This document shows, piece after piece, positions 5,455 through 32,455 of a DNA stretch of 64,000 bases. A model generated the notes under the pieces. That model was not told where the DNA came from. It made no database searches and saw only the letters and a program-made list of their open reading frames with translations. The translations under genes and the position numbers were made by a program. This DNA is from an uncultured Candidatus Rokubacteria bacterium (lineage in GTDB: Bacteria; Methylomirabilota; Methylomirabilia; Rokubacteriales; CSP1-6), in assembly GCA_963747235.1 (NCBI GenBank), contig CAVVEU010000031.1, positions 83,467 to 147,466 of the forward strand, read 5' to 3'. How positions within the stretch are numbered: the first letter of the stretch is position 1; every line of letters begins with the position of its first letter.

Positions 5455-7473
5455 ATGGCCACCATCCGCACCATGTGCCCGATGAACTGCCATCCCACCC
5501 TCTGCGGGATGCTCGTCACCGTCGAGGACGGGCGGCTCGTCGAGGTCGCGGGAGACCCGGACAATCCCGACAGCCGCGGCTTCCTCTGCGTGCGCGGCCA
5601 CGCCTCGCGCGAGATCATCGGCAACCCGCAGCGCCTGCTGACCCCGCTCGCGCGCGACCGTCGCGACGCGCCGTTCCGCGAGGTGACGTGGGACGCGGCG
5701 CTCGATCGCATCGCTTCGGGCATGCGGTCGGTCGGGCGCGAGGCGGTCGGGCTCTGGTCGGGACACGGGTTCTTCGCCAACAACTACGGCACCCGCGTCA
5801 ACTCGGAGCTGCTCCGGCGCTTCGCCAATCTCTGGGGCTGCCAGTGGTGGGCGCCCACCATGATCTGCTGGGGCCTCGGCGGCTTCGGGATCGGACTCAC
5901 CGGCCCGCTCGAGACCAATACCAAGGAGGACATGGGCGCGCACGCGCAGCTCATCCTGCTCTGGGGCGCCAATCTCGCGAGCCAGCCGAACACCGCCCCG
6001 CACCTGGTCGCGGCGCGGCGCCGGGGGGCCCACGTGGTCACCATCGACGTGCGCCGCACCGAGGCGGCCGCGCAGTCGGACGAGGTGCTGATCATCCGGC
6101 CCGGCACCGACGCCGCGCTGGCCCTCGGCATGATGCACGTGCTGATCGCGGAGGATCTCTGCGATCGCGAGTTCGTCGCGCGGCACACCATCGGGTTCGA
6201 AGCGCTCGCCGCGCACGTGCGGCGACATTCGCCCGCGTGGGCCGCCGCGGTCACCGGCCTCGACGAGGCGGTCATCGTGGGCCTCGCGCGCCGGTACGCG
6301 GCGACGCGGCCGGCCATGATCGTGCTGGGCGGCAGCAGCATGCACAAGGGCGCCAACGGCTGGCAGGGCGCGCGCGCGGTGGCGTGCCTGCCCGCGCTCA
6401 CCGGCAACCTGGGCATCGCGGGCGGCGGCCTGGGCCCGCGCCACGGCAGCAAGGGGCACGGCTTCGGCCTCACCGACATCGCGCTGGCCGAGCGGCGACC
6501 GCCCGGCGACTACGTGCCCAACCAGATGCCGCGCATCACCGAGGCGCTCGAGGCCGGCCGGGTGCGCGCGCTGCTGCTCTTCGGCACCGACATGCTGTCG
6601 TCGTTCGCGGACAGCGCCCGGGTCGAGGCCGCGCTCGCGCGCCAGGAGCTGATCGTCAGCCACGAGCTCTTCTGGAACGACACCGCGCGCCGCTTCGCGG
6701 ATGTCGTGTTGCCCGGCACGTCGTGGCTCGAGGAGCTCGGCTGCAAGGCGACCAACACGCATCTCTACCTGATGGAGCCGGCCCTGCCGCCCGCCGGGCA
6801 GACGCGCACCGGCGCGTGGGTGCTGCAGGAGCTCGCGCGGCGCCTCGGGGTCGCCGATTTCTACCCGTGGGCGGACGCGGCGGGGCCCATCGACGCGATC
6901 CTCGATCACCCCGCGACCGGGCACGCCACCGTGGCGGCCCTGCGCGCGGAGGGCGGCCTGCGCGCGCTCCGCGTCTCGCACGTGGGCCATCCGGATCTGG
7001 TATTTCCGACTCCTTCCGGGAAGGTGGAGCTCTACTCGGCGCGCGCGGAGAGCCTGGGCCTGGCGCCGCTGCCGGTGCACGAGGACCTGCCCGCCTCACG
7101 CTTCCCGCTCGTGCTCCGCCAGGGGCGGACCCTGGCGCACTTCCACGGTTTCTACGATCACGGCCGCGCGCTGCCGTCGCTGGCCGCGCTCGAGCCCGAG
7201 CCGGTGCTCTGGCTGTCGCCCGCCGACGCGGCCGCGCGCGCGGTGGCGGACGGCGCCGCGGTGCGCGTGTTCAACGAGCGCGGCGAGATGCGCGCCCGCG
7301 CCCGGGTGACGGACCGCGTGCCCGCGCGCACCGTGTGGATGCGCGACGGCTGGGAGGGGCTCAACCGGCTCACCTCGGGGGACGCGTGCATCCCGGACGC
7401 CGCGGTGGACGTGTTCGGATTCTCGGCGGGCCAGGCCGCGTTCGACGCGGCGGTGGAGGTCGCGCCTGTCTGA
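5455..7473 (+). CDS. Single-subunit molybdopterin (DMSO reductase superfamily) oxidoreductase
   Basis: Own ATG at 5455 with GAGG upstream; Fe-S motif CPMNCHPTLCG...GFLCVRG; IRPGTDAALALG; ADVVLPG; TPSGKVEL; C-terminal molybdopterin dinucleotide domain; no Tat signal. Confidence 0.9.
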   Translation: MATIRTMCPMNCHPTLCGMLVTVEDGRLVEVAGDPDNPDSRGFLCVRGHASREIIGNPQRLLTPLARDRRDAPFREVTWDAALDRIASGMRSVGREAVGLWSGHGFFANNYGTRVNSELLRRFANLWGCQWWAPTMICWGLGGFGIGLTGPLETNTKEDMGAHAQLILLWGANLASQPNTAPHLVAARRRGAHVVTIDVRRTEAAAQSDEVLIIRPGTDAALALGMMHVLIAEDLCDREFVARHTIGFEALAAHVRRHSPAWAAAVTGLDEAVIVGLARRYAATRPAMIVLGGSSMHKGANGWQGARAVACLPALTGNLGIAGGGLGPRHGSKGHGFGLTDIALAERRPPGDYVPNQMPRITEALEAGRVRALLLFGTDMLSSFADSARVEAALARQELIVSHELFWNDTARRFADVVLPGTSWLEELGCKATNTHLYLMEPALPPAGQTRTGAWVLQELARRLGVADFYPWADAAGPIDAILDHPATGHATVAALRAEGGLRALRVSHVGHPDLVFPTPSGKVELYSARAESLGLAPLPVHEDLPASRFPLVLRQGRTLAHFHGFYDHGRALPSLAALEPEPVLWLSPADAAARAVADGAAVRVFNERGEMRARARVTDRVPARTVWMRDGWEGLNRLTSGDACIPDAAVDVFGFSAGQAAFDAAVEVAPV

Positions 7474-8152
7474 GCGTCCCGCGGCCGCGCTGCTCTTCGA
7501 CTTCGGGGGCACACTCGACGCCGACGGGGTGACGTGGAAGGAGCGATTCTTCGCCCTCTGGCGCGCCGAGGGCGCGGCGGATCGCGCCGAGGCCTTCGAT
7601 CCCGTCTTCTACCGCGCCGACGACGCGCTCGTGGACGCGATCCCGGTCACGCTCTCGTTCGAGGAGACGGTGCGGCGCCTCACCGCGAGCATCGCGGCCG
7701 GCCTCGCGGTGCGCGACGAGCGGGTGATCGCGCGCGTCGGCGACCGCTTCCTCGACGACGCCCACCGCCATCTGCGACGCAACCAGGCGCTCCTCGCGCG
7801 GCTCGGCGCGCGCTACCGGCTCGGGCTCGTGTCCAACTTCTACGGGAACCTCGAAACCGTGTGTCATAATACGGCGATCCTGTCTCTCTTCGGCGTCATC
7901 GTCGACTCCGTGCGGGCCGGATTCTCCAAGCCGGATCCGCGCATCTTCATGCGGGCGCTGGACGGGCTCGGGGTGGCCCCGATCGACGCCACGTTCGTGG
8001 GCGATTCGGCGGCCCGGGACATGGCGGGCGCGCGGGCCCTCGGCATGCGGCACATCTGGCTGATCGCCGACCCGCCGCCGCCCGGCGGGCCGTGCTGCCC
8101 CGGCGACGCGATGATCCATTCACTGACGGACGTGGAGGCCCTGCTGCTCTGA
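7466..8152 (+). CDS. HAD-family hydrolase/phosphatase (CTG start proposed)
   Basis: Motif I LLFDFGGTLD lies upstream of the track start 7529; also VSNFYGN, KPDPRIF, FVGDS..RD. GGAGG sits 6 nt before CTG 7466. Confidence 0.88.
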   Translation: MSERPAAALLFDFGGTLDADGVTWKERFFALWRAEGAADRAEAFDPVFYRADDALVDAIPVTLSFEETVRRLTASIAAGLAVRDERVIARVGDRFLDDAHRHLRRNQALLARLGARYRLGLVSNFYGNLETVCHNTAILSLFGVIVDSVRAGFSKPDPRIFMRALDGLGVAPIDATFVGDSAARDMAGARALGMRHIWLIADPPPPGGPCCPGDAMIHSLTDVEALLL

Positions 8153-8856
8153 TGGCGGATTCGGTGCGAGGCGCGATCATCGCGGCCGGCGAGGGCAGCC
8201 GCCTGCGCGCGGACGGCTACCGGGTGCCGAAGCCCATGGTGGAGGTGGCCGGGGTGCCCCTGATCGGCGCGGTGTTGCGCAATTTCACGACCGCCGGGAT
8301 CACCGCGATCACCATCATCTTGAACGAGCAGGAGCGGGAGTGCGTCGAATGGGTCCGGACGCGGTTCCCCGCGCTCGAGCTCGACTTCATCGTCAAGACC
8401 ACCGCGTCCTCGCTCGAGAGCTTCCGGGAGGTGACCGGCCGCGGGCCCGCCGGGCCGATGCTCGTGTCCACGGTGGACGCGTGGTGCGCGGCGGAGGACT
8501 TCGCGCGCTTCGCGGCGGCGGCGGCTTCCCGGCCGGACGACGCGACGGTGCTCGCGGTCACCCCGTTCGTCTCGGACGAGAAGCCGCTGTGGGTGACGCT
8601 GGGGGCGGGCGGGCGCGTGGAGGGCCTCGGTACGGTGGATAGCGGTCTGGTCACCGCGGGGGTGTATCGTGTCTCAGATCGGGCGCGGCGGCTCGCGCCC
8701 ACGCGGGAGCTCGGGCGGCTGCGCGAGTACCTGGGGTGGCTGCACGAGAGCGGCGAGCCGCTCTACGGGGAGATCATCGAGACGGTGGTGGACGTGGACC
8801 GGGCACTGGATGTGGCCAGCGCGGAGGCGCTGGCGCGAGGAGCGCGACGCACATGA
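8152..8856 (+). CDS. NTP transferase (sugar/polyol-phosphate nucleotidylyltransferase family)
   Basis: AIIAAGEGSRL..PKPMVEVAG signature, C-terminal DVD; TGATG overlap with the HAD gene. Confidence 0.88.
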   Translation: MADSVRGAIIAAGEGSRLRADGYRVPKPMVEVAGVPLIGAVLRNFTTAGITAITIILNEQERECVEWVRTRFPALELDFIVKTTASSLESFREVTGRGPAGPMLVSTVDAWCAAEDFARFAAAAASRPDDATVLAVTPFVSDEKPLWVTLGAGGRVEGLGTVDSGLVTAGVYRVSDRARRLAPTRELGRLREYLGWLHESGEPLYGEIIETVVDVDRALDVASAEALARGARRT

Positions 8857-9729
8857 GCGCGAGGAGGACGGGGGTGGCGGATCTGACATGCTGGGGACTC
8901 TTTCGCGAGCGCGAGCACTCGCCCGGCCGGGAGAGCGACGACGCGGAGATCCTGCGACTGACCGGCAAGCACCTGGAGACGTACGGCGTCCAGGTGGACC
9001 TCCGGGCCCCCGAGGACCTCGTCGCCACCGAGGTGCCGCCCGACGGCGTGTTCTTCATGTGCGAGCGCATGGAAGCGCTCGGCACGCTGCTCGCCTGGCA
9101 GGAGCGGGGCGTGCGCCTCGTCAACTCGCCGCTGGCCGTGCTCAACACCTATCGCGAGCGGATGATCGCGCAGCTCCGCGAGGCCAACGTGGCCTTCGTG
9201 CCGAGCCGGCTCGTGACCACGAGCGACGCGGACGTCGCGACCGCGGCTGCCGGTCTGGGTCAAGCGCGCCGACGTGCACAACACGCAGGACGGTGACGTG
9301 GTCTTCGCGGAGACGGAGGCCGCCGTCGCGGCCGCGCTCGCCGGCCTCGCGGCCCGCGGCATCGAGGGCGCGGTGCTGCAGCCGCACGTGGCCGGCGACC
9401 TCGTCAAGTTCTACGGTGTCGGCCCCGGCGGCGGCGGGCCGGACGGTGGGCCGCCCTGGTTCCGCTGGTTCTACCACAAGGATCAGCACCTGTCCGGCCA
9501 CGCCTTCGACGCGGGCCGGCTCGCGCGCCTGGTGCGCGAGGCCGCCACCGCGCTCGGCCTCGAGATCTACGGGGGCGACGCCATCGCCTCCGCGGACGGT
9601 GGGCTCCAGCTCCTCGATCTCAACGCGTGGCCCAGCTTCGCGCTCTACCGCGACGAGGCCGCGCCGGTGATCGCGTCGTACCTGGCCCTGCGCTTCGGCG
9701 CCCGCCGGGCCGCCGGAGGCGGGCGGTGA
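8853..9729 (+). CDS. ATP-grasp-like protein (apparent +1 frameshift near 9245)
   Basis: N-part MSARRTG..REHSPGRESDDAEIL..RLVNSP; C-part WVKRADVH..LQPHVAGDLVKFYGV..LGLEIYGGD..LDLNAWPSF resembles RimK/ATP-grasp C-terminal motifs. Confidence 0.72.
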
Positions 9730-11055
9730 GCGAGCCGCGCGAGCCCGGGCCCCGGTCGCGGGAGATCGTGGCGCGCGAGGCGCGCCACATCGCGCCCGGC
9801 TACCAGTCCTTCGCGCTCTACTCGGGGCTGGCCATGGCGCGCGGCAGCGGCGCGACGCTCTGGGACGAGGACGGCAACGAGTACATCGACTTCATCGCGG
9901 GCATCGCGGTGGGGAGCATCGGGCACTGCCACCCGCACTACGTCGAGGCCCTGAAGCGCCAGGCCGAGCGGCTGACCTTCGGCAGCTTCACCACCGAGAC
10001 CCGCGCGCGCTTCCTCGAGCTGCTGGCCTCCGTCACCCCCGAGGGCCTCACGCGCATCCAGCTCTTCTCGGGCGGCGCGGAGGCGGTGGAGGCCGGCCTG
10101 CGCCTGGCCAAGGCCGCGACCGGGCGGCAGGAGGTCATCGGGTTCTGGGGCGGCTTCCACGGCAAGACCGGCGGCGTGCTGGGCCTGCTCGGCAGCGACT
10201 TCAAGCATCACCAGGGTCCGTTCCTGCCCGGCCAGCACTCGACGCCCTACGCGGACTGCTACCGCTGCCCGCTCAAGCTCCGCTATCCGGACTGCGGCAT
10301 CGCGTGCGCGGAGTACGTCCGCGACGTCATCCGCTACCAGACCGCGGGCGAGATCGCCGCGATCATCGTGGAGCCGATCCAGGGCACCGCGGGGAACATC
10401 ATCCCGCCCGACGGCTTCCTGCGGGCGATCCAGTCGGTGGCCCGCGATCACGGGGCGCTGCTCTTCGCCGACGAGATGATCACCGGGTTCGGCCGCACCG
10501 GCTCGATGTGGGGCACCGACCACGAGGGCGTCGTGCCCGACATCATGACGGTGGGCAAGGGCGTGGGCGGCGGCTTCCCGCTGGCCGGCGTGGTCTCCAC
10601 CGAGAAGCTGGTCGCGCGCCAAGCCCTGGTCCAATCCGAGCTTCAGCTCGTCGAGCTACGGCGGCAATCCGCTCGCCTCGGCGGCGGGGCTCGCCGCGCT
10701 CGAGATCATCCTGAAGGAAGACCTCGTCGAGCAGTCCAATCGCGTCGGCGCGGTCATGCTCACCGAGCTCCAGCGCCTGAAGGAGAAGTACCGCACGGTG
10801 GGCGAGGTGCGCGGCCGCGGGCTGCTGCTCGGCATCGAGCTGGTCGAGGACCGTCAGAGCCGCAAGCCGCTCGACAAGTCCATCACCCGCGACCTCTACC
10901 TGGAGTGCCTGCGGCGCGGCCTCGTGGCGATGACCTACTCGCCGACCATCCGGCTCAACCCGCCGCTCGTCATCACCGAGGAGACGGCGCGGGCCGGCCT
11001 CGCGATCCTGGACGAAGCGCTCGGAGTGACGCTCAAGCGCCATGGGCGAGACTAG
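9726..11055 (+). CDS. Class III PLP-dependent aminotransferase (apparent +1 frameshift near 10615)
   Basis: WDEDGNEYIDF, SGGAEAVEAG, FHGKT, EPIQGTAG, DEMITGFGRTG, PDIMTVGKG (PLP lysine), VRGRGLLLGIE; GTGA overlap. Confidence 0.92.
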
Positions 11056-12085
11056 GAGACTCCGGGGCGCGGTCATCGGCCTCGGCAACGTGGCGGTGCA
11101 CGGCCACCTGCCGGGCTGGCGGCAGCGGGCCGACGCGGTCATCGTGGCCGCCACCGATCTCCACCCGGCGCGGCAGGCCGAGTGCCGGGCCGCCCTGCCC
11201 GGGGCGCGCTGGCACGACTCGATCGAGTCCCTGCTGGCCGCCGACGATCTCGACTTCGTGGACGTGTGCACGCCTCCGTCGAGCCACGCGGCCCTCATCG
11301 AGGCCGCGCTCGCCCGCGGGCTGCACGTGCTCTGCGAGAAGCCCCTGGTGGCCTCCCTCGCCGAGCTCGAGCGCCTGGCCGGGCTCGCGCGCGCCGCGCG
11401 CGCCGTGCTCCACACCGTGCACAACTGGCACCAGGCGCCCCTCGTGCGCGCCACCGACGCCCTCATCCGCGAGGGCCGCATCGGAGCGGTGCGCGAAGTG
11501 GTCTGGCGGACGCTGCGCACCCAGCCGGCCGCCGCGGCGGGCGGGGATAGCTGGCGGGTGGATCCGGCGATCGCGGGCGGCGGCGTGCTGACCGACCACG
11601 GCTGGCACGTCTCCTACGTCGTCCCGCGCTGGGTGGGCGCCCCGCCGGACGCGGTGAGCGCGCGGCTCGAGACGCGCCGGCACCATCGCTTCGCGGTCGA
11701 GGACACCGCGACGGTGCGCCTGCAGTTCCCCGACGCGGTGGCCGACATCGTGCTGACGTGGGCCGCCGAGACGCGCGAGAACCAGGCGCACGTGATCGGG
11801 ACCGCGGGGCGCATCGACATCGAGGACGACACGGTGGTCCTCCGTACGGACGGGCGCGAGGAGCGCCACCGGCGGCCGCCCGCACTGTCCGACGGGTCCC
11901 AGCATCCGGACTGGTTCGGGCCCGTCACCGACGAGTTCATCGCCCGCGTGCTCGGCCAGGACCCGAGCAGCCGCAATCTGGACGAGGCGGCGGTGTGCAT
12001 CGCGGTGGAGTGCGGCGCTCGCGAGTCGAGCCGCCGCGGCGGCGTGCTGTTCCCCCTGGCCGCGCGAGTCGGGACGGCCGGGTGA
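11042..12085 (+). CDS. Gfo/Idh/MocA family NAD(P)-dependent oxidoreductase
   Basis: GAVIGLGNVA Rossmann motif, HVLCEKP, GGGVLTDHGWH. Confidence 0.92.
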   Translation: MGETRRLRGAVIGLGNVAVHGHLPGWRQRADAVIVAATDLHPARQAECRAALPGARWHDSIESLLAADDLDFVDVCTPPSSHAALIEAALARGLHVLCEKPLVASLAELERLAGLARAARAVLHTVHNWHQAPLVRATDALIREGRIGAVREVVWRTLRTQPAAAAGGDSWRVDPAIAGGGVLTDHGWHVSYVVPRWVGAPPDAVSARLETRRHHRFAVEDTATVRLQFPDAVADIVLTWAAETRENQAHVIGTAGRIDIEDDTVVLRTDGREERHRRPPALSDGSQHPDWFGPVTDEFIARVLGQDPSSRNLDEAAVCIAVECGARESSRRGGVLFPLAARVGTAG

Positions 12086-13251
12086 CCACGCTCTCCTCCA
12101 CGGCCGTCTCCGTGCGGAGCCTCCTCGTGATCCTGCCGGCCCCGCCCGGCGCCGGCTCCCCGCCGCCCGGGACCGTGATCGCGGGCCTTCCCCTCGTGCG
12201 GCGCATCGTCCTGGCCGCGGAGCGCGCCGGCTTCGAGCGGATCCTGGTGCATCCCCGGGCCTGCCCGGAGCCGCGTCTGCTCGCGGGCACCGTCGCCGTC
12301 CTGCTCGACGCCGACACGCCGGTGGCGTCGCGGGCCCGGCTCGTCCTGGTGCCGGCCAACGTCCTGCCCCAGGCGCGCTGGCTGCGCGCCCTGCGCGAGA
12401 TGCCGCTCGATCCGGAGACGCTCGCGGTCGACGCGTCCTTGACCGCGGTGGTGGAGAGCGCCGGGATCGACGAGGTGCTGCGCTCGGCCGGCCAGGCCGC
12501 CGGCGCGCAGGACCTGATCGCCGCGCTCTCGCGGCGCCTGGCGCGCGCCGCCGAGGCGGGCGATCCGGCGGGCCGCTTCGCGCTCGGGGACGCGGCGGCG
12601 GCCCAGGCCGCCGAGGACTGGCTGCTGCGCAGCCTCATCAAGGACACCGAGGGATTCATGTCCCGCCATGTCGAGCGGCGCATCTCGCTCGCGATCACGC
12701 GGCGGCTGGTGGGCACGCGCATCACGCCCAACCAGATGACGCTCGTGAGCCTCACCATCGGCCTGCTCGGGGCGCCGTTCTTCCTGTCCGCCGAGCCCCT
12801 GCTACAGATCGTCGGGAGCCTGCTGTTCCTGACCCACTCCATCCTGGATGGCTGCGACGGCGAGCTGGCGCGGCTGAAGTTCCAGGAATCGCCCTCCGGC
12901 GCGCGCCTCGACTTCTGGGGCGACAACCTGGTCCACGTGGCCGTGTTCGGCTGCATGGCCGGGGGCTGGACCCTGGCCGAGGCCTCCCTCTGGCCGCTGC
13001 TCCTGGGCGCCCTGGCGATCACCGGCACCGCCGCGTCCGCCTATCTCGTCGCCCACCGCGACGGCGCCGCCGCCGCGGCGGGGCCGCCCGGCCGCCTGGC
13101 CGACGCGGTGGCCAACCGCGATTTCATCTATCTCGTGCTCCTGCTCGCCTGCTTCGGCCGAGCCCACTGGTTCCTGATCCCGGTCGCGCTCGGCACACCG
13201 ATCTTCATGATGCTGGTCCGGTGGGGCGCGGGGCGACGCCGGACGACCTGA
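12082..13251 (+). CDS. CDP-alcohol phosphotransferase with degenerate N-terminal nucleotidyltransferase-like domain (IPCT/DIPPS-like)
   Basis: Family motif DGCDGELAR..GARLDFWGD; KDTEGFMSRHVERRIS..ITPNQMT; N-terminal IAGLPLVRRIVLAAERAG; several TM helices. Confidence 0.88.
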   Translation: MTTLSSTAVSVRSLLVILPAPPGAGSPPPGTVIAGLPLVRRIVLAAERAGFERILVHPRACPEPRLLAGTVAVLLDADTPVASRARLVLVPANVLPQARWLRALREMPLDPETLAVDASLTAVVESAGIDEVLRSAGQAAGAQDLIAALSRRLARAAEAGDPAGRFALGDAAAAQAAEDWLLRSLIKDTEGFMSRHVERRISLAITRRLVGTRITPNQMTLVSLTIGLLGAPFFLSAEPLLQIVGSLLFLTHSILDGCDGELARLKFQESPSGARLDFWGDNLVHVAVFGCMAGGWTLAEASLWPLLLGALAITGTAASAYLVAHRDGAAAAAGPPGRLADAVANRDFIYLVLLLACFGRAHWFLIPVALGTPIFMMLVRWGAGRRRTT

Positions 13252-13252: not shown

Positions 13253-14797
13253 GTGTTTTCCGTCCTCGACGTCCTGCTGCGCGGCCTGATCCTCGCCGCG
13301 CAGGCTACCGCGGTGGGCGGGGTGTGCTTTCTGCTGCTCGTGGCCCGCGCGCCCGAGGCGCCGCGCTCGCTGCTGCTCATCGCCGCCGCGGCGGTCACGC
13401 TCGCGCTGGGCCAGGCGCTGTCGCTCGGCAACGAGCTGTTCGTGCTCCTCCACGAGGCGGCCTGGCCGCTGCGCGCGGCGCTCGACACGCTCTACGTGCA
13501 GGTGAGCGTCGTCCGGATCGCGGCCGGGCTCGCGCTGGCCGGGTGCGCCCTCGGACTGCGCCGCGCCCGCGGGCCGTCGCGGCTCTGGCCGGCGGTGGTG
13601 GCGCTGGCCGCGGTGCTGGTCGTGGCCGCGCCGTGGACGAGCCATGCCGCCGCGCGGCTCGACTCCCGCGTGCTGCTGCTGCTGCTCGACGGCGCCCATC
13701 AGCTTGGCGCCGCGGTGTGGGTCGGCGGCCTCGTGCACCTGACCGCGGCCGCGTTCCGGCGCGGCGATCGGCCCTGGCCGGTGGCCCTGCTCCGGCGGTT
13801 CTCGAACCTGGCCCTGGGCGCCGTCGCGGTCCTGGTGGGCGCGGGCGTCGGCCTCACGTGGAACTACGCGCCGGACCAGACCGCGATCTTCGGCACCGCG
13901 TACGGCCTCATGGTCATGACCAAGGTGGCGATCCTCGGCGGCCTGCTCGTGCTGGGGGCGCTGAACTCCCGGGCGATCCGGCGCATGGACGGCGCGCCCG
14001 AGGCCGACCAGCTCACGCTTCGCCGCTTCGTGGAGGTCGAGGTCGGCCTGGGCCTCACCGTGCTCTTCGCGGCCGCCTCGCTCACCTCGCTGCCGCCGGC
14101 GGTGGATCTCACCCACGATCGCGCCACGCTCTCGGAGGTCGCGACGCGCTTCACCCCGCGGATGCCGTCGCTGCGCTCGCCCTCGATCTCCGAGATGCCG
14201 ATCGACGATCCGCTGGCGCCCCGCAACGACGCCGATCGCGCCTGGTCCGAGTTCAACCACCACGTGTCCGGGATCCTGGTCCTCACCATGGGCCTGCTGG
14301 CCCTGCTGCACGCCACGGGCCGGGCCCGCTGGGCGCGGCACTGGCCGCTCGTCTTCCTGGGCCTGGCCGCCTTCATGGTCGTGCGCAACGATCCGGGCTC
14401 GTGGCCGCTCGGCCCGGAGGGCTTCTGGGAGGGCTGGCTCGTCGCGACGGTGGCGCAGCACCGGGTCTTCGTGCTGCTCGTGATCGTCTTCGGCATCTTC
14501 GAGTGGATGGTCCGCAGCGGCCGGCTGGCGTCGCGGCGCGCAGCCCTGATCTTCCCGCTGCTCTGCGTGATCGGCGGCGGCATGCTGCTGAGCCACTCGC
14601 ATGCCGCGCAGAACCTCAAGGACGAGTTCCTCCTCGAGGTGACCCACGCGCCGCTCGGCCTGCTGGCCTTGCTGATCGGCTGGGGGCGCTGGCTCGAGCT
14701 TCGGCTCCCCGAGGGGCGGGGGCGCGTGCCGGGGGCGCTCTGGGCCGTCGGCCTCGTGCTCGTGGGCGCTCTCCTCATCATCTACCGGGAGAGCTAG
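13253..14797 (+). CDS. CopD-family membrane protein with extended C-terminal domain
   Basis: WTSHAAA, HQLGAAVWVGGL, RRFS, TAYG..MTK; His-rich TM C-terminal region (WSEFNHH, QHR, LSHSH). Confidence 0.78.
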   Translation: MFSVLDVLLRGLILAAQATAVGGVCFLLLVARAPEAPRSLLLIAAAAVTLALGQALSLGNELFVLLHEAAWPLRAALDTLYVQVSVVRIAAGLALAGCALGLRRARGPSRLWPAVVALAAVLVVAAPWTSHAAARLDSRVLLLLLDGAHQLGAAVWVGGLVHLTAAAFRRGDRPWPVALLRRFSNLALGAVAVLVGAGVGLTWNYAPDQTAIFGTAYGLMVMTKVAILGGLLVLGALNSRAIRRMDGAPEADQLTLRRFVEVEVGLGLTVLFAAASLTSLPPAVDLTHDRATLSEVATRFTPRMPSLRSPSISEMPIDDPLAPRNDADRAWSEFNHHVSGILVLTMGLLALLHATGRARWARHWPLVFLGLAAFMVVRNDPGSWPLGPEGFWEGWLVATVAQHRVFVLLVIVFGIFEWMVRSGRLASRRAALIFPLLCVIGGGMLLSHSHAAQNLKDEFLLEVTHAPLGLLALLIGWGRWLELRLPEGRGRVPGALWAVGLVLVGALLIIYRES

Positions 14798-16489: not shown

Positions 16490-17257
16490 CTAGCGCTTTC
16501 GCAGCACGACGACCATCAGCAGCGGATGGTGGGCCTCGTCGAGGCGGAGATGGGGCTTGAAGCCGTAGAACCACTCGACCATCTCGAACCCGCCGGCGAG
16601 CTGGACCAGGGTCCGCAGCTCCTGGGGGAAGACCATCCGGGATTCGTGGCGCTGGCGGTAGACCCGCCGCGTGCCGTTCTCGTGCGCCTCGAGCTCCATG
16701 TCCTCGAAGAAGGTCTGCGTGACCGGGTTCAGGTCCTTGAGCGCCTCGAAGGTGGCGCGCACGGTCGCGCTGCCGCGCCGGCGCGTCCAGGACCAGCGGC
16801 GCGCGGGATCGGTCCAGGAGGAGCACATGTAGCGGTCGAAGACGTAGAGTCCGCCCTTCTTGAGCCCGCGGGCCACGCAGCGGAGATGGGCGAGCAGGGC
16901 GTCGTTGGTCAGCAGGTGGCCCTGCGAGTCCTGCATGCAGATCGCCGCGTCCACCGAGCGCCGCAGCTTGAAGCGGGTCATGTCCGCCACGAGCAGGGTG
17001 GCGTCGAAGCCCTTGGCCGCGGTCCGCTCCTTCAGGAAGGCGATGTTCTCCGGCGAGAGATCGAGCCCCGACATGGTGTAGCCGCGCGCGGCCAGGCGGA
17101 TGAGGTGCGGGCCGGTGCCGCAGGCGATGTCGAGCACCGTCTTGACCGGACGGCGCGCGTAGCGGCGGAAGCAGTGAACGAGGAAGTTCACCTCCTGCCG
17201 CCGGTTCATGTCGAAGGCGATCTCGTAGTACCGGGGGGCCGAGTATTGCGCGCTCAT
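16490..17257 (-). CDS. Class I SAM-dependent methyltransferase
   Basis: VLDIACGTGPH, GLDLS, ADMTRF; ATGA overlap with the agmatinase stop. Confidence 0.88.
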   Translation of the reverse strand: MSAQYSAPRYYEIAFDMNRRQEVNFLVHCFRRYARRPVKTVLDIACGTGPHLIRLAARGYTMSGLDLSPENIAFLKERTAAKGFDATLLVADMTRFKLRRSVDAAICMQDSQGHLLTNDALLAHLRCVARGLKKGGLYVFDRYMCSSWTDPARRWSWTRRRGSATVRATFEALKDLNPVTQTFFEDMELEAHENGTRRVYRQRHESRMVFPQELRTLVQLAGGFEMVEWFYGFKPHLRLDEAHHPLLMVVVLRKR

Positions 17258-18114
17258 GACGTCCCGAACCAGGTCAGGATGGCCTCCCGGAGGATCCACG
17301 AGGCGGTGATGCCGGTGCGGCCCGACGGGTCCCAGGCGGGCGCGACTTCCATCAGGTCGGTGCCGACGATCCGGCAGGGCTCGAGCAGGCGGACGATCTC
17401 CACCAGCTCCGAGGCGGTGATGCCGCAGGGCTCGGGCGCGCCGGTGCCGGGCGCCTCGGAGGGATCGAGCACGTCCACGTCGATGGTCACGTAGAGCGGG
17501 TGCGCCCGGAGCTCGGGGAGCAGGCTCTTCACCGCCTCCACCGGGTGAATCCGGTGGGCCGGGAAGAGATGCGGGGCTTTCCGCTGGTACTCCTCGCGGG
17601 CGCCCGTGCGCATGCCCACCTGGAACACGCGCTCGGGGGCCACCACGTCCATCACGCGGGCCATGGCCGAGGCGTAGTTGTAGCGCTCGCCGAGGAACTC
17701 CTCGCGAAGGTCCGGGTGGGCGTCGAGCTGGAGGATGCGCAGCTCCGGGATGGCGGGCGCCAGCACCTCGATCACCGGCAGCGTGGCGGTGTGGTCGCCG
17801 CCCAGCATGACCGGCAGCAGCCCCGGCCGCCAGAAGCCCCGGATCTCCTCCCGGGCCCGGGCGAGCTGCTCGCGCGGGGAGCCGTCGCCCAGCTCGCAGT
17901 CGCCCAGGTCGGCGATGGCGAGGTCTTCCAGGTCGCGCCCGAGGAAGGGCGAGTAGGTCTCGATGGAGTCGGAGGCCAGCCGGAGCTCGCGGGGGCCGTG
18001 GTCGGCGCCCCGGCGGAGGTTGATGCGCCCCTCGAAGGGGATGCCGAAGAGGATGATCCGGGCCTCCGGGAGGGAAGCCCGGCAGGCGATGAAGCGAGGC
18101 TCGGCCGGGATCAA
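17254..18114 (-). CDS. speB: Agmatinase (ureohydrolase)
   Basis: GGDHT, DAHPD and DVDVLDPSEAPGTG metal-binding motifs; polyamine gene context. Confidence 0.93.
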   Translation of the reverse strand: MIPAEPRFIACRASLPEARIILFGIPFEGRINLRRGADHGPRELRLASDSIETYSPFLGRDLEDLAIADLGDCELGDGSPREQLARAREEIRGFWRPGLLPVMLGGDHTATLPVIEVLAPAIPELRILQLDAHPDLREEFLGERYNYASAMARVMDVVAPERVFQVGMRTGAREEYQRKAPHLFPAHRIHPVEAVKSLLPELRAHPLYVTIDVDVLDPSEAPGTGAPEPCGITASELVEIVRLLEPCRIVGTDLMEVAPAWDPSGRTGITASWILREAILTWFGTS

Positions 18115-18123
18115 CAGCCGGCG

Positions 18124-18606
18124 CTAGCCGAGGTCTTCGTCGGCGAGGAGCGTGACGGCGGCCAGCGCGCAGCCCGTCCGCTCGACCCGATGCTCGACCG
18201 CGAAGACCTTCATGTCCCGGATCTTCTCACCCCGGACCCGGAAGGCCTCCTCGAGCATCTGGACGATCATCCGCTCCGCTTCCTCGCGCGTGGCCTTGTC
18301 GTGGAACTCCATGATGACCCCGTTCTTGGCGGGGTCCACCGGCCGGGCCCAGCCGACGGCGGCCGCGACGACCTCGCCGGGCACCTCGCTGGTCATGGCC
18401 GCGTAGGCGGTCGGCACGAGCGCGCCCGGCTTGATCCGCGGCAGCGCCACCAGCTCCACGCCCGGGGGCAGGATGCTGGACACCTTGATGAGGTTGATGT
18501 TGCCGATGCCGGCCGCCAGCAGGGCGTTGTCGAAGGCGTTCAGTGAGGTCGAGCCCTCGGCGTTGCCGGCCGTGCCCGCCGCCTTGGTCACCGGTGCGAA
18601 GCGCAT
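18124..18606 (-). CDS. pdaD: Pyruvoyl-dependent arginine decarboxylase
   Basis: LNAFDNALLAAGIGNINLIKVSSILPP with the S-S cleavage site; GAGGAGG SD before ATG 18606. Confidence 0.92.
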   Translation of the reverse strand: MRFAPVTKAAGTAGNAEGSTSLNAFDNALLAAGIGNINLIKVSSILPPGVELVALPRIKPGALVPTAYAAMTSEVPGEVVAAAVGWARPVDPAKNGVIMEFHDKATREEAERMIVQMLEEAFRVRGEKIRDMKVFAVEHRVERTGCALAAVTLLADEDLG

Positions 18607-18916
18607 TCGCTCCCTCCTCGTGGCGTTGTGCGCGGAAACCGCCGCGCGTCTCTCGAGCGGAGCATCGCCTCCGCCCGTCGTGAATTGCTCGTTCATCGTA
18701 GCGGCTCGGCCCACGAACGCAAGCAAAAAGTTGACTTCGGCGCCGCTTGGTGGTCTCGCCGAGCGGCCTCGGCGAGCGCTCGCGCCGCCGTGGGAGCGGC
18801 TCAAACGGCCATTTTTTTCTTGCAATGGAAAAAAAATAGCCCCACAGTGCAGAAAAATCCGGCAAGTAGAAAAATTGCCGGAGAAATCGGACCAGAACTT
18901 GGGGAGGAGGGAAAGA

Positions 18917-19327
18917 GTGCAAGCACTGGGACGTCACCTGCTGCTCGAGCTGTTCGACTGCGACGCAGAGGCCATCAACAGTCTGGACACCGTGAAGGCA
19001 TCCATGGTGGAGGCGGCCAAGCGGGCTCAGGCCACCATCGTCGACGTCGTCTTTCACGAGTTCAACCCGTTCGGCATCAGCGGAGTCGTCGTCATCGCCG
19101 AGTCGCACCTGGCGATTCACACGTGGCCGGAGTATCGCTACGCCGCCGTCGACGTCTTCTCCTGCGGCGACGTCCTCCAGCCCCAGGTGGCCGCGGACTA
19201 CCTCGTGGAGCAGCTCGGGGCCGCCCGGGCGTCCGTGGTGGAGCTCCAGCGCGGCATCTTCGTGAACCATCCCCGGAAGCTCCTGCACAAGCCGGCGGGG
19301 GCGCCCGTCGCCTCCACCCCGAGCTGA
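18917..19327 (+). CDS. speD: S-adenosylmethionine decarboxylase proenzyme (SpeD/SpeH type)
   Basis: LGRHLLLEL, FHEFNPFGISGVVVIAESHLAIHTWPE, DVFSCG; GGAGGAGG SD before GTG 18917. Confidence 0.95.
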   Translation: MQALGRHLLLELFDCDAEAINSLDTVKASMVEAAKRAQATIVDVVFHEFNPFGISGVVVIAESHLAIHTWPEYRYAAVDVFSCGDVLQPQVAADYLVEQLGAARASVVELQRGIFVNHPRKLLHKPAGAPVASTPS

Positions 19328-19337
19328 TCGGGCCCGA

Positions 19338-20255
19338 ATGGCCACGCTCCAGTACAAGTGGTTCTTCGAGACCACGACCCCGGTCGAAGGGCACATGCAC
19401 GCCATCGCCCGGACCATCGTCACCCGACAGACCAAGTTCCAGTTCATGGAGATCATGGACACCCACTCGTACGGCAAGTGTCTGGTGCTGGACGGGCGGA
19501 TCCAGTCGAGCCAGGCCGACGAGTTCATCTACCACGAGACCCTGGTGCAGCCCGGCATGCTGGCCCACCCCCGGCCCCAGAAGGCCATGGTCATCGGCGG
19601 GGGCGAGGGGGCCACGGTCCGGGAAATCCTCCGCTACAAGACGATCACCGACTGCCTCATGGTGGACATCGACGGTGAGGTGGTCGAGGAGTGCAAGAAG
19701 CACCTGCCCGAGATGCACCGGGGAGCCTTCGACGACCCCCGGACCCGGCTCCTGCACGAGGACGCCCGGGCCTATCTCGAGAAGACCACCGAGCGCTTCG
19801 ACCTGATCGTGGTCGACCTCGTGGAGCCCCTCGAGGAAGGGCCGGCCTGCCTGCTCTTCACCAAGGAGTTCTACACCCTGATCCGTGACCGGCTGACCGA
19901 CCAGGGGGTCATGACGATGCAGGCCGGCATGACCAAGGTGAACGAGATCTTCTTCCACGGGGCGGTGAACCGCACGCTCCAGGAAGTCTTCCCGGTGGTC
20001 GCGCCGTATCAGAGCTTCATCTCCTGCTTCGGGACTCCATGGGGCTTCATCCTGGCCTCCAAGGGCACGGACCCCCGGAAGCAGTCTCCGGCCGAGATCG
20101 ATCGCCTCATCGCCGAGCGCATGAATCCCAAGGACCTCGGGTACTGGGACGGCAACGCGCACCTGCACTGCTTCAGCCTGCCCAAGTTCCTCCGCGAGTC
20201 GATCGAGAAGAACGACCGCGTCATCACCGACAAGAACCCCCTGATCGTTACCTGA
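19338..20255 (+). CDS. speE: Polyamine aminopropyltransferase / spermidine synthase
   Basis: LVLDGRIQS, YHETLV, VIGGGEGATVRE, VDIDGEVV. Confidence 0.95.
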   Translation: MATLQYKWFFETTTPVEGHMHAIARTIVTRQTKFQFMEIMDTHSYGKCLVLDGRIQSSQADEFIYHETLVQPGMLAHPRPQKAMVIGGGEGATVREILRYKTITDCLMVDIDGEVVEECKKHLPEMHRGAFDDPRTRLLHEDARAYLEKTTERFDLIVVDLVEPLEEGPACLLFTKEFYTLIRDRLTDQGVMTMQAGMTKVNEIFFHGAVNRTLQEVFPVVAPYQSFISCFGTPWGFILASKGTDPRKQSPAEIDRLIAERMNPKDLGYWDGNAHLHCFSLPKFLRESIEKNDRVITDKNPLIVT

Positions 20256-28986: not shown

Positions 28987-29715
28987 CTACTCGGCGGCCA
29001 GGCGGTAGCCCACGCCCGGCTCGGTCAGTAGGTACCGGGGCCGAGCGGGCTCATACTCGAGCTTGCGGCGCAGGGCCCCCATGTAGACGCGGAGATAGTG
29101 GGCCTGGTCGGTGTGAGATGGCCCCCACACTTCCTTTAATAGGTGCCGCTGGCTCAGGACTCGGCCGGCGTGCTTGACCAGAGCGGTCAGCAGCCGGTAC
29201 TCGATCGGGGTCAGGTGGACGTCCTTGCCGTCGAGCTGGACCTGGCGCTTGACCTGGTCGACTCGGAGACCGCCCACGGTGAAGATAGGCTCGCCCGACT
29301 CGCCGCCCGCCGCGTGGCGCAACGCGACCCGCAGGCGCGCGAGCAGCTCCCCCACCGCGAACGGCTTGCTGACGAAATCGTCGGCGCCGGCGTCGAGAGC
29401 CGCGACCTTGTCGCGCTCCTGGCCCCGCGCGGAGAGCACGATGATGGGCACGCGGCTCCACTCTCGCAGCCGCCGGATCACCTCCAGGCCGTCCAGATCG
29501 GGCAGGCCCAGGTCCAGGATGACGACGTCGGGCTGGCGGCTCGCCGCCTCGATCAGCCCGTCCTCACCGGAGGTCGCCTCGTACAGCCGGTAGCCCTGAG
29601 TGCCGAGGGTGGCGCGCAGGAACCGGCGGATCTGGGGCTCGTCCTCGATGAGGACGACGACCGGCGGGGGTGCCGGTGCGGGCGTTCTCGCGGCCGGCTC
29701 GGGCTCAGGCGGCAT
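28987..29715 (-). CDS. kdpE: KdpE response regulator
   Basis: LDLGLPDLDG, HLTPIEYRLL, YLRVYMGALRRKLE..P.YLLTEPGVGYR. Confidence 0.95.
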   Translation of the reverse strand: MPPEPEPAARTPAPAPPPVVVLIEDEPQIRRFLRATLGTQGYRLYEATSGEDGLIEAASRQPDVVILDLGLPDLDGLEVIRRLREWSRVPIIVLSARGQERDKVAALDAGADDFVSKPFAVGELLARLRVALRHAAGGESGEPIFTVGGLRVDQVKRQVQLDGKDVHLTPIEYRLLTALVKHAGRVLSQRHLLKEVWGPSHTDQAHYLRVYMGALRRKLEYEPARPRYLLTEPGVGYRLAAE

Positions 29716-32401
29716 CGTTCTCGATCGGAATGGGAGGGGCTTCCTTCACCGGCAGCGTGAAGCGGACCGTGATCCCGCCGCCGGGGCGGTTCTCCGCCCA
29801 GATGCGTCCGCCGTGCGCGGTGACGATCCCCTCGCAGATCGCGAGGCCGAGCCCGGCGCCCCGCACCGTCGGCGTGGCCTCGGAACGATGAAATTTCTCG
29901 AAGATGCGCCGCTCCTCGCCCGGCCGCAGCCCGGGGCCGCGATCGGCGACCTCGATCAGCACGGCGCCGCCGGTGTCCGCCGCCGTCACCTCGATCGGGC
30001 TCCCCGGCGGCGTGTACTTGAGGGCGTTGTCGAGGAGGTTGATCAGCACCTGCTCGATCAGCACGTCGTCCATCGGGACGAGCGGCAGATCGGACGGCAC
30101 GCGGGTGGTGAGGGCGCGCCCCGCGAGGGCCTTGCCGAAGCGGCCGAGCGCGGCGCCGACGACCTCCTCGACGGGATGCCACTCGGTGTGGAGCTGCAGC
30201 GCGCCCGACTCGAGGCGCGTCATCTCGAGGAGGTTCTGCACCAGGCGGTTCAGCCGGTCGGCCTCCTCGTGCAGGGACTCCAGCAGGTCGCGGCGGGTGC
30301 CCGCGTCGAGGTGCGCTTCGTTGTCGAGCAAGGTGCTGGCCGCCCCGGTGATCGAGGCGAGCGGCGTGCGGAGATCGTGCGAGACCGAGCTCAGCAGCGA
30401 GTTGCGCAGCCGCTCGGTCTCGGCCCGCACCTGGGCCTGCTCCGCTTCCTCGGCGAGCCGCGCCCGCTCGATGGCCAGCGCGGTCTGGCTGGCGAAGGTC
30501 TCGAGCTGGTGGAGCTGCTCCGGCGCCTGCAGCGGGCGCGGATCCTGAGGTCGGAGCCCGAGCACGCCCACGCTGCCGCGCGACCCGGTGAGCGGCAGGT
30601 AGAGCCCGGAGGCGCCGGGGAGCGTGTCGGTGCCCTGTCCCGCGACCTGCCCGTGCTCGTGAACCCACTGGCTGACCGCCAGCTCGCTGGCGTCCAGCGG
30701 GAACTGCGCGACCGCGCCCTCGTCCGGAGCCAGTCGCCCGTCCGACTGCGGGAGCAGCACCACGACCCGGGCCCCGAACACCTCGGAGATGTGCCGCACC
30801 GCCACCTCGAGCAGCCCGCGGACACCGCGGGTGCTGGCCAGCTCGCGGCTCATCGCGTAGAGCGAGGCCATGCGCCGCGCGCGCTCGCGGGCCGACTCGG
30901 CCTGGGCGCGAATGCGCACCGCGAGGCCACTGATCACGAGGGCCACCACCAGCATGACCGCGAAGGTGACGACGTACTGCGTGTCCGAGACCGCGAAGGT
31001 GAAGTAGGGCGGCACGAAGAAGAAGTCGAAGGCGGCCACGCTCAGCAGCGTCGCGAGCAGGGACCCGCCCCGGCCGTAGCGGGTGGCCACGATGATCACG
31101 CCGAGCAGGTAGACCATGATGAGGTTGGAGACTGCGAAGTACGGGAACATGGCCCACGCGATCGCGGTCGAGATCGCGACCACCACGAGGGCGGCGACGT
31201 AGGGCGTCCACTCCGTCTGCGATTGCCACGTGCGGGGCGGCATCGGCCGCGAATCGTCCCGATCGCCGCTGATCACGTAGACGTCGATCTCGCCGCTGCC
31301 CTGGACGAGCGTGTCCACGATCGAGCCCGCGGCGATCCGCTTCCAGAGCGGCCGCTCCGGCTTGCCCACCACGATCTTGCTCACGTTGCGCGCCCGGGCG
31401 AACGCGAGGATCTCGTCGCTCATCCGCCCCCCGGTCAGGGTGTGCGTCTCGGCCCCGAGCTGCTCGGCCAGCCGCATGGTCTGGGCCACCCGATCGCGGG
31501 CGTCCTGGGTCAGGCGAGTCTGCGCCGCGGTCTCCACGTAGGCGACGATCCACTCCGCCCCGAGCCCCTCCGCCATGCGCTTGGCCGCGCGCACCAGGCG
31601 GATCGAGGAGGGGCTCGGCCCGATGCAGACCAGCAGCCGCTCCCGCACCGGCCACGTCTCGTGGATCGCGTGGTCGCGCATGTAGTGGCGCATCTCGGCG
31701 TCCACGTGCTGCGCGGTCACCCGCAGGGCCAGCTCGCGCAGCGCGATCAGGTTGCCCTTGCGGAAGAAGTTCTCGATGGCCTCGCGGGCCTGGTCGGGGA
31801 TGTAGATCTTGCCGTCCCGGAGGCGGTGGAGGAGGTCGTCGGGGGGCAGGTCGATCAGCTCGACCTCGTCGGTGTGCTCGAAGATGGAGTCCGGCACCGT
31901 CTCGCGCACGACCACGCCGGTGATCCTGGCCACCACGTCGTTCAGGCTCTCGACGTGCTGCACGTTCATCGCCGAGTAGACGTTGATCCCGGCGTCGAGC
32001 AGCTCGACCACATCCTGCCAGCGCTTGGCGTGCCGCGAGCCGGGCGCGTTGGTGTGGGCCAGCTCGTCCACCAGCATGATGGTGGGCCGGCGCGCCAGGG
32101 CCGCGTCCAGATCGAACTCCCGCAGCGTGGTGCCCCGGTACTCCATCGGCCGCCGGGGCAGGATCTCAAGGTCGCCCACGAGGGCCTCGGTGTCGGCACG
32201 GCCGTGGGTCTCCACCCAGCCCACCACGACGTCCACGCCCTGAGCCCGCTGCTCGCGGGCCGCCTCGAGCATGGCGTAGGTCTTGCCGACCCCTGCGGCG
32301 GCGCCGAAAAAGATCTTGAGCTTGCCGCGTCCCTGGCGGGTTTCCGCCTCCTTGACACGGGCCAGCAGCTCGTCCGGATCAGGTCGGCGCTCGGTAGTCA
32401 T
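29705..32401 (-). CDS. kdpD: KdpD sensor histidine kinase
   Basis: GKLKIFFGAAAGVGKTYAML, VDELAHTN, USP domain, 4 TM, GAF, SVSHDLRTPL, HATPase. Confidence 0.97.
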   Translation of the reverse strand: MTTERRPDPDELLARVKEAETRQGRGKLKIFFGAAAGVGKTYAMLEAAREQRAQGVDVVVGWVETHGRADTEALVGDLEILPRRPMEYRGTTLREFDLDAALARRPTIMLVDELAHTNAPGSRHAKRWQDVVELLDAGINVYSAMNVQHVESLNDVVARITGVVVRETVPDSIFEHTDEVELIDLPPDDLLHRLRDGKIYIPDQAREAIENFFRKGNLIALRELALRVTAQHVDAEMRHYMRDHAIHETWPVRERLLVCIGPSPSSIRLVRAAKRMAEGLGAEWIVAYVETAAQTRLTQDARDRVAQTMRLAEQLGAETHTLTGGRMSDEILAFARARNVSKIVVGKPERPLWKRIAAGSIVDTLVQGSGEIDVYVISGDRDDSRPMPPRTWQSQTEWTPYVAALVVVAISTAIAWAMFPYFAVSNLIMVYLLGVIIVATRYGRGGSLLATLLSVAAFDFFFVPPYFTFAVSDTQYVVTFAVMLVVALVISGLAVRIRAQAESARERARRMASLYAMSRELASTRGVRGLLEVAVRHISEVFGARVVVLLPQSDGRLAPDEGAVAQFPLDASELAVSQWVHEHGQVAGQGTDTLPGASGLYLPLTGSRGSVGVLGLRPQDPRPLQAPEQLHQLETFASQTALAIERARLAEEAEQAQVRAETERLRNSLLSSVSHDLRTPLASITGAASTLLDNEAHLDAGTRRDLLESLHEEADRLNRLVQNLLEMTRLESGALQLHTEWHPVEEVVGAALGRFGKALAGRALTTRVPSDLPLVPMDDVLIEQVLINLLDNALKYTPPGSPIEVTAADTGGAVLIEVADRGPGLRPGEERRIFEKFHRSEATPTVRGAGLGLAICEGIVTAHGGRIWAENRPGGGITVRFTLPVKEAPPIPIENDAA

Positions 32402-32455
32402 GAGGCAGTCCGGCGCCAGACTACGACGGAACGAGCACCCGATTCAACCGACGGG

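Follow-up and report, generated by a model that had tools for sequence, protein, structure and literature searches.

We analysed a 64,000-nucleotide stretch of DNA (hereafter the window) from an uncultured Candidatus Rokubacteria bacterium (positions 83,467 to 147,466 of contig CAVVEU010000031.1, assembly GCA_963747235.1), in which six genes with overlapping junctions lie on the + strand between positions 7466 and 13251. All coordinates are positions in the 64-kb window. The junctions are, in order, TGATG, ATGA, GTGA, a 14-nt overlap and GTGA. A preliminary description, made from the letters alone, had assigned the genes (Table 1) to six enzyme families and read them as a route to an aminocyclitol phosphodiester head group. 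The layout and families hold up in the open reading frames and in Pfam, which backs five of the six labels; for the third gene, the exception, the support is an ATP-grasp fold. The statement that no inositol-phosphate synthase is present also stands, as tblastn with two ino1 types gave no match anywhere in the 64 kb.

Table 1. The six overlapping genes of the cluster, with positions in the 64-kb window.
Gene product	Positions	Strand	Basis and remarks
HAD-IA phosphatase	7466..8152	+	PF00702, E 2.4e-13; CTG start behind GGAGG
NTP (nucleoside triphosphate) transferase	8152..8856	+	PF00483/PF12804
ATP-grasp protein	8853..9729	+	no Pfam match; ATP-grasp fold in model of a relative; frameshifted
Class III PLP (pyridoxal phosphate) aminotransferase	9726..11055	+	PF00202; frameshifted
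Gfo/Idh/MocA dehydrogenase	11042..12085	+	PF01408/PF22725
CDP (cytidine diphosphate)-alcohol phosphotransferase	12082..13251	+	PF01066, 43.7 bits against a cut-off of 22

Compared with two relatives that are 91-92% identical at the DNA level, the ATP-grasp gene carries a one-base frameshift near 9236-9242 and the aminotransferase gene another near 10612-10617. To judge from these comparisons both are likely read errors, because the two closest relatives are intact there and the essential alaS (4904) is broken likewise; alaS and a methyltransferase gene (15690 and 15842) have one-base insertions relative to close relatives. True pseudogenes were rejected on the same grounds. Indel errors of this kind in the assembly make gene calls unreliable throughout the window. 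Between 2500 and 15400 there are no promoter-like sites and three terminator-like sites (shuffle mean 1.6). Wider boundaries of the cluster were rejected on both sides: upstream, the molybdopterin oxidoreductase gene recurs only in loci L001 and L002, plus a weak match in L034, and downstream a CopD-like gene is found in 13 of the 80 loci described below, all from the window's own lineage. In the window this gene, encoding a CopD-domain membrane protein (13253-14797), directly follows the cluster; it often lies between the phosphotransferase gene and an LPG-synthase gene.

The conservation of the cluster was followed with an alignment of 101 full-length ATP-grasp homologues (8 named and 93 of 150 listed, from 1158 clusters in all; fragments and fusions were left out). 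The named homologues, 75-96% identical, come mostly from Methylomirabilota/Rokubacteria. Scanning GTDB genomes with this alignment gave at least 596 confirmed matches, of which the best 80 loci were kept, so the locus counts lean to near relatives. All six genes are present in 50 of the 80 loci, and 28 loci repeat the gene order of the window exactly, a grouping far beyond chance. The preliminary description had made the co-occurrence of the two amination genes with the others its test, and they do co-occur: the aminotransferase is found in 69 and the dehydrogenase in 63 of the 80 loci, beside the HAD phosphatase in 71, the NTP transferase in 73 and the CDP-alcohol transferase in 70. Genes of the LPG-synthase/HpnL type lie within 10 kb of the cluster in 51 loci and ino1 in 33; for the 63 loci with both amination genes the latter figure is 29, which supports the link to inositol. 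When only the 40 loci flanked by 8 kb or more on either side are considered, HAD is found in 39, the NTP transferase in 37, the aminotransferase in 34, the dehydrogenase in 33, the CDP-alcohol transferase in 38, LPG-synthase/HpnL in 29 and ino1 in 21. Six-gene loci span Methylomirabilota, Acidobacteriota, Verrucomicrobiota, Thermodesulfobacteriota, Ignavibacteriota and others. Two loci are probably mislabelled or misbinned, namely L002 (labelled Limnocylindria), about 91% identical to the window, and L069 (labelled Bifidobacterium), which groups with Verrucomicrobiota.

Within this set the dehydrogenase gene never occurs without the aminotransferase gene, while the aminotransferase gene stands alone in six loci, each ending at a contig or locus edge. 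Both are missing from 11 of the 80 loci, in Bacteroidales, two Ignavibacteria, two Thermoanaerobaculia, a second paralogous cluster of Acidobacteriota and one Rokubacterium. On the tree the pair changes six times as computed, and five times once the frameshifted L027 is corrected. In the Ignavibacteria L076 and L077 the two genes sit at two separate positions in a backbone that L063 and L070 have without them. As far as gene content and sequence can tell, the aminotransferase and dehydrogenase are thus an optional pair, gained or lost together.

By its sequences and gene order, the core that is left without this pair is the alternative Bacteroidetes cluster (BVU_RS13095/13105/13115), which is proposed in passages of PMC9246714 for CDP-inositol lipid synthesis and is itself unconfirmed. 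The review file of that paper names Prevotella nigrescens among the species with the alternative cluster, and the gene order there is NDP-sugar synthase, a hypothetical protein that corresponds to the ATP-grasp protein, CDP-alcohol transferase, HAD and inositol-3-phosphate synthase. The window NTP transferase is 29% identical to its P. nigrescens counterpart (E 8e-28) and the HAD phosphatase 27% (E 3e-26); these matches and the synteny make the link to the Bacteroidetes route, already drawn in the preliminary description, a direct one. Common to both clusters are the NTP-transferase and HAD subfamilies and a CDP-alcohol transferase, and in many of the window's relatives also an LPG-synthase-type gene and ino1. 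In P. nigrescens, P. distasonis and a Phocaeicola metagenome-assembled genome (MAG) the ATP-grasp gene has the NTP transferase gene on one side and the phosphotransferase gene on the other. The window-type cluster differs in adding the aminotransferase and dehydrogenase and in having a phosphotransferase of another type (AF2299-like, with an N-terminal domain). The passages and supplements of PMC9246714 that were searched name neither the ATP-grasp gene nor BVU_RS13100; from synteny and locus-tag spacing only, the Phocaeicola ATP-grasp protein would be BVU_RS13100. Searches with this Phocaeicola protein returned named matches from Bacteroides ilei and Mediterranea only. In Parabacteroides distasonis (L082, 6286-11039) the core cluster is followed by a metallophosphoesterase gene and has no ino1 within 7 kb. 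In a Bacteroidales MAG (L066, 9250-16967) PgpA, GtrA-like, second CDP-alcohol transferase and PAP2 genes lie inside the alternative cluster; they resemble the B. thetaiotaomicron-type route, and both inositol-lipid routes appear to stand side by side.

The residues of the two shared enzymes are well kept. In the HAD protein D12, S123, K155, D180 and D185 are invariant (59 aligned rows), and in the NTP transferase R17, K27 and D109 (41 rows), which match by position R16, K26 and D112 of IMPCT, as given in passages of PMC12275187. The HAD protein would be an inositol-phosphate phosphatase, or a phosphatase of the final step, and the NTP transferase a CTP (cytidine triphosphate):cyclitol-phosphate cytidylyltransferase; a PDB sequence search found no close characterised relative of the latter. 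That the cluster uses an inositol-based CDP route seems to us very probable.

The last gene encodes a class I CDP-alcohol phosphotransferase, whose membrane domain carries the signature D256-G257-x-D259-G-x2-A263-R264...G273...D277...D281 in 37 of 37 rows. Its PDB sequence relatives are AF2299 (E 4.6e-20, the best) and IPCT/DIPPS (E 1.1e-12), and the predicted model (pLDDT, the predicted local distance difference test score, 89) has the fold of AF2299 (E 2e-13) and of IPCT-DIPPS (Z 25.0, root-mean-square deviation (rmsd) 4.5, 340 aligned). Helices were taken from this model; a hydropathy scan gave three at its threshold and was not used. The IPCT/DIPPS-like label is thereby upheld as an architecture, with a score of 79.9 bits, below the cut-off of 580, for the family model NF041135. 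The N-terminal cytidylyltransferase-like domain is degenerate, its fold being present and its glycine-rich start motif not conserved. The cluster shares with IPCT/DIPPS, IPCT/BEPIS and AF2299 the logic of a cytidylyltransferase plus a CDP-alcohol phosphotransferase, and the two-domain fold. It differs from these systems in its extra kinase-like and amination genes, in a fused N-terminal domain that is without the nucleotidyltransferase glycine-rich motif, and in having a gene of its own for the active transferase. Further CDP-alcohol transferase genes lie with LPG-synthase and ino1 genes near the main cluster in L021 (14500-19070), where the protein has an NTP-transferase-like N-terminal part, and in L015-L017; they possibly form a second inositol lipid route.

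The product of this enzyme could be a lipid or a solute. The same upstream chemistry could end in a soluble phosphodiester resembling di-myo-inositol-phosphate (for example inosamine-phospho-inositol), with the HAD enzyme removing the last phosphate as in the synthesis of that solute. The genomic neighbourhoods favour a lipid: LPG-synthase/HpnL genes accompany the cluster in 51 of the 80 loci, including 14 of 20 from Methylomirabilota/Rokubacteria (one such protein passes TIGR03476), and Mla-type transport genes in 18 of 80, although in the window itself no flippase-like gene lies beside the cluster. Of the 33 full-flank loci that have the amination pair, nine lie next to hopanoid genes (17 counting dxs) and five next to sphingolipid-type genes, the latter comprising an SPT-like enzyme below cut-off, a GNAT protein that we take to be ceramide-synthase-like and a Lipid_DES desaturase. 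In addition, the R-D-F-R of AF2299 reads R-D-F-I here, the second Arg being Ile in 35 of 37 rows, and R-D-x-R may be the motif for the acceptor phosphate. Passages of PMC4587543 and PMC12275187 give precedents, the former for transfer of CDP-inositol to a lipid by BEPIS (the Rhodothermus inositol ether lipid) and the latter in the head-group transfer to lipid proposed for Caulobacter CpgD/CpgA. The chief evidence against a lipid is that the nearest relatives in sequence and fold, AF2299 and DIPPS, use soluble substrates; moreover, the compact architecture is described in passages of PMC4634129 as typical for soluble acceptors, lipid-acceptor enzymes usually having 3-4 more helices. On balance we regard a lipid as the likely product and a soluble phosphodiester as an unlikely one.

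The amination pair was examined for what its enzymes might act on. The aminotransferase falls below the NCBIfam cut-offs of all 25 families listed (of 68), and it has K147 (49 of 49 rows) and T221 (48 of 49) at the positions where three GabT/ornithine-type controls have Arg and Glu. In the GabT/ArgD omega-transaminases the Arg (FHGRT) binds the substrate carboxylate and the Glu of QGEGG acts as a switch. The replacement of both residues suggests a substrate that carries no carboxylate, and an amino-acid omega-transaminase of the GabT/ArgD type was rejected on these residues and on the scores below the listed cut-offs. In a search of 72,556 plasmids, the best match to the aminotransferase lies in a cluster with a sedoheptulose-7-phosphate cyclase (aminocyclitol) and has the Lys without the Glu; the margin is small, 233 bits against 221 for the next listed. 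The dehydrogenase has an invariant CEKP motif, D185 and H189 (48 rows). It is not an IolG orthologue, scoring 60.4 bits against the TIGR04380 cut-off of 355, and its best plasmid match, which lies near a class III aminotransferase of a different, HemL-like branch, lends weak support. PDB sequence searches gave no close characterised relative of either protein. The two would be an inosose aminotransferase and an inositol dehydrogenase, and we consider it likely that the cyclitol is aminated. A locus on a plasmid of Streptomyces sp. NBC_01601 (L084, 3850-12688) holds a class III aminotransferase, a methyltransferase, nucleotidyltransferases, a Gfo dehydrogenase, a NUDIX protein and an aminoglycoside adenylyltransferase, and looks like an aminocyclitol natural-product cluster.

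Alternatively, the substrate of the pair might be a different polyol, above all the side chain of hopanoids; the two enzymes would then supply an HpnO-like amination and the unknown ribosylhopane reductase and would simply accompany an ordinary inositol-lipid cluster. In several Methylomirabilota, Acidobacteriota and deltaproteobacterial loci the cluster does lie among hpnA/G/H/L/M/N, shc, dxs and ispH, and passages of PMC12583986 describe the enzyme from ribosylhopane to bacteriohopanetetrol (BHT) as unknown and HpnO as hard to distinguish from other aminotransferases; the one annotated hopanoid cluster examined has no hpnO. The same passages place hpnO typically outside hpn clusters, however. 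Also, 16 of the 33 full-flank pair loci lack both hopanoid genes and dxs, five of them lying among sphingolipid-type genes; in Ignavibacteria the two genes are inserted among those of the phosphotransferase and ino1 operon, and a residue shift in the ATP-grasp protein, described below, tracks the pair. These points make this reading slightly less probable still than a soluble product.

The ATP-grasp protein belongs to a family without a name. Pfam gave nothing for its two pieces or for an intact relative, and NCBIfam nothing for the two pieces. The predicted model of the intact relative (pLDDT 94) has the ATP-grasp fold and superimposes on ArgX (Z 21.9, rmsd 2.9, 249 aligned), RimK (Z 21.5), StITPK1 (Z 18.3, rmsd 3.2, 246 aligned) and PPIP5K2 (Z 17.5, rmsd 3.4, 244 aligned). 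Foldseek puts D-Ala-D-Ala ligases on top, and in the ESM Atlas RimK-like and ITPK-like clusters score near-equally, without discrimination. Fold alone favours neither a kinase nor a ligase, whereas the catalytic residues favour a kinase. Across the 101 rows, which stem from profile searches and not from the pattern scan (that scan required D-x-N by construction), R94 is found in 99, K130 in 101, H135 in 89, K178 in 100 (Arg in one), D235 in 100, and D248 and N250 in 101. The ligands of the Asp1 kinase listed in passages of PMC9765450 (R123, K197, H204, K260, D321, D333 and N335) have counterparts in these residues, in the same order; K178, D235, D248 and N250 were aligned directly to ITPK chains, and R94, K130 and H135 are matched by order, as their putative equivalents. 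In HMMER alignments ITPKs share the Lys and the D-x-N with this family, whereas RimK and PsnB have Arg and E-x-N. Shared with ITPK1/PPIP5K are thus the fold, the D...D-x-N metal site and the Lys and His phosphate ligands; the cluster family differs in its identity of about 16%, below Pfam significance (PF05770 gives no significant match, with a best E of 0.0022 and 16 of 101 members at E<=1), in having few conserved basic residues for a polyphosphate substrate, and in its occurrence in bacteria and association with lipid genes. For ITPK1, passages of PMC6900528 and PMC8024741 describe phosphorylation of inositol monophosphates and a distribution in eukaryotes and Asgard archaea.

A further pattern is linked to the amination pair. 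Lys or Arg at position 64 or 136 is found in 20 of the 21 ATP-grasp copies whose next gene is not the aminotransferase and in 0 of the 69 for which it is, and these are the only 2 of 284 columns that pass the test (10 residue classes). A kinase that acts on a cationic aminocyclitol wherever the pair occurs would fit this pattern. Of 13 proteins scanned, seven have the ATP-grasp part fused to an NTP transferase, one has it fused to HAD plus NTP transferase and one to a phosphotransferase, and some of these fusions could be gene-calling artefacts. In eight Acidobacteriota loci (L030, L031, L039, L041, L042, L047, L048 and L051) two divergent clusters flank dxs-ispH: the first holds the NTP transferase, ATP-grasp, amination pair, phosphotransferase and ino1 genes, and the second has genes for LPG-synthase and HAD, for a separate ATP-grasp paralogue (R131Q, D133T, K136) and for a phosphotransferase, which suggests two lipids or two kinase steps.

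In the preliminary description the aminocyclitol head group is perhaps N-acylated by the ATP-grasp protein, which would then be an amide ligase. The best fold and profile matches are indeed ligases (ArgX/LysX/RimK, D-Ala-D-Ala ligases, and PsnB at E 8e-8), and the aminotransferase gene comes next in 69 of 90 ATP-grasp copies. But the ATP-grasp gene persists where no amine is made, in the 11 loci, and in two cultured Bacteroidota, without amination genes nearby, so that N-acylation of the head group is unlikely. The E-x-N and preceding Arg of the aligned RimK/LysX amide ligases, with which the overall fold is common, are replaced in this family by the Asp and Lys of the kinases. N-acylation is therefore not borne out, and the ligase is an improbable explanation, whereas a cyclitol (inosamine/inositol) kinase of an unnamed family is a probable one. 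Least probable of all is that the pair runs in reverse as a salvage route, deaminating environmental inosamines and reducing them to inositol while the kinase feeds an ordinary inositol lipid: both reactions are reversible and 34 of the 63 pair-bearing loci have no ino1 nearby, but it stands beside the pair in the other 29, no conserved sugar or cyclitol importer was seen among the recurrent neighbours (104 representative open reading frames from 148 groups, with apparent shadow frames and core families excluded), and the residue shift of the ATP-grasp protein points to another substrate in loci with the pair.

From gene identities, folds, catalytic residues, synteny and modularity we infer a CDP-head-group (Kennedy-like) pathway, with its substrates, step order and lipid acceptor, that would put inosamine phosphate on a membrane lipid alcohol, a reading whose chances we put at about even. 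Ino1, encoded inside the cluster in many relatives and presumably elsewhere in this genome, would make inositol-phosphate, which the HAD enzyme would dephosphorylate. The Gfo/Idh/MocA enzyme would oxidise inositol to inosose and the class III aminotransferase would convert this to inosamine. Phosphorylation by the ATP-grasp enzyme would give inosamine-phosphate, the NTP transferase would activate it to CDP-inosamine, and the CDP-alcohol phosphotransferase would move phospho-inosamine onto a lipid alcohol, for which ceramide, a glycerol lipid and a hopanepolyol are candidates, possibly depending on lineage. A membrane protein of the HpnL/LPG-synthase type would then flip or modify the product, and the core without oxidation and transamination would yield plain inositol lipids, as proposed for Bacteroidetes. 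Of the scheme in the preliminary description, oxidation, transamination, CDP activation and transfer are thus kept as putative steps, while N-acylation and a phosphatase acting last are judged less likely. The order probably differs because the ATP-grasp protein looks kinase-like, not ligase-like: the phosphatase probably acts first and the ATP-grasp enzyme re-phosphorylates the aminocyclitol.

Besides the soluble substrates of the nearest phosphotransferases, several observations speak against this pathway. None of the six enzymes has a close characterised relative. The type of phosphotransferase varies between lineages, and ino1 is not within 10 kb in the closest relatives (L001, L002, L003, L012, L013 and L027). 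The profile of the NTP transferase singles out no nucleotide and ranks IPCT below the sugar-1-phosphate enzymes RmlA and GMPP, and in that of the dehydrogenase, inositol dehydrogenases rank below several other Gfo enzymes. In overall fold, LysX/RimK ligases (Z 21-22) are closer matches to the ATP-grasp protein than ITPK1 is (Z 18), and per-member Pfam matches, all weak, are 16 of 101 for ITPK, 19 for RimK and 24 for ATPgrasp_ST. The pattern at positions 64 and 136 was found post hoc, comes from at most four lineages and is broken by L019. Finally, in clusters without amination a phosphatase and a kinase together look like a futile cycle, unless the phosphate is moved or inositol is salvaged.

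The upstream half of the pathway resembles the hygromycin A module (Hyg18 ino1, Hyg25 phosphatase, Hyg17 dehydrogenase and Hyg8 aminotransferase, the last presumably of class III), which arrives at an inosamine through the same activities. Hyg17 also belongs to PF01408, a likeness at family level, and at that level the set of ino1, phosphatase, PF01408 dehydrogenase and aminotransferase recurs wherever ino1 stands beside the pair. The module differs in serving the synthesis of an antibiotic and in having neither CDP activation nor a membrane transferase. According to passages of PMC10949010 it is the proposed route to neo-inosamine, only Hyg17 having been assayed, and those of PMC7240160 add mutant phenotypes only. 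In the Caulobacter CpgD/CpgA pathway to ceramide diphosphoglycerate, a stand-alone cytidylyltransferase likewise activates the polar head group of a bacterial sphingolipid; as described in passages of PMC12275187, the head group there is glycerate, and no ino1, amination or ATP-grasp gene takes part. Among the matches listed from open-access literature, no paper dealt with this set of genes, with a lipid containing inosamine or with the ATP-grasp family. Each kind of step has a precedent, and the combination, the probable head group and the probable kinase family are probably new.

Elsewhere in the window, polyamine genes at 16490-20255 encode a methyltransferase, an arginase-family hydrolase, a pyruvoyl arginine decarboxylase, an AdoMet decarboxylase and a spermidine synthase. 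The region 28990-44112 contains kdpD/kdpE-like, kdpA, P-type ATPase and kdpC genes; another kdpA, which is split, lies on the opposite strand, and a DUF4118 gene stands by itself. One tRNA (56529-56601) is the sole Rfam match in the window.

The proposed pathway predicts a phospho-inosamine head group that is 0.984 Da lighter than phosphoinositol, in bacteria about whose membranes little has been described. Being isobaric with phospho-hexosamine lipids, lipids of this kind could readily be assigned wrongly. In human-associated Bacteroidota (Prevotella, Parabacteroides and Phocaeicola), the gene without a name in the inositol-lipid cluster, itself unconfirmed, gains a candidate role as a cyclitol kinase, and passages of PMC4587543 note a bacterial inositol kinase as missing in inositol-importing species. 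We offer as a tentative and on the whole doubtful generalisation that many uncultured bacteria (Rokubacteria, Thermoanaerobaculia, Chthoniobacterales, Ignavibacteria and vent deltaproteobacteria) make zwitterionic amino-inositol phospholipids of an undescribed class, on ceramide in some lineages and possibly on bacteriohopanepolyols in others, through ITPK-like cyclitol kinases (1158 clusters at 50% identity) that would also supply the missing step of the gut Bacteroidetes route. On this reading HpnL, given as a protein without known function in passages of PMC12324291 and PMC12583986, would gain a job. A bacterial family of ATP-grasp kinases would bear on the origin of eukaryotic and Asgard ITPK1/PPIP5K, and the chemistry of aminocyclitol antibiotics would, if the pathway is as proposed, sit in membrane metabolism.

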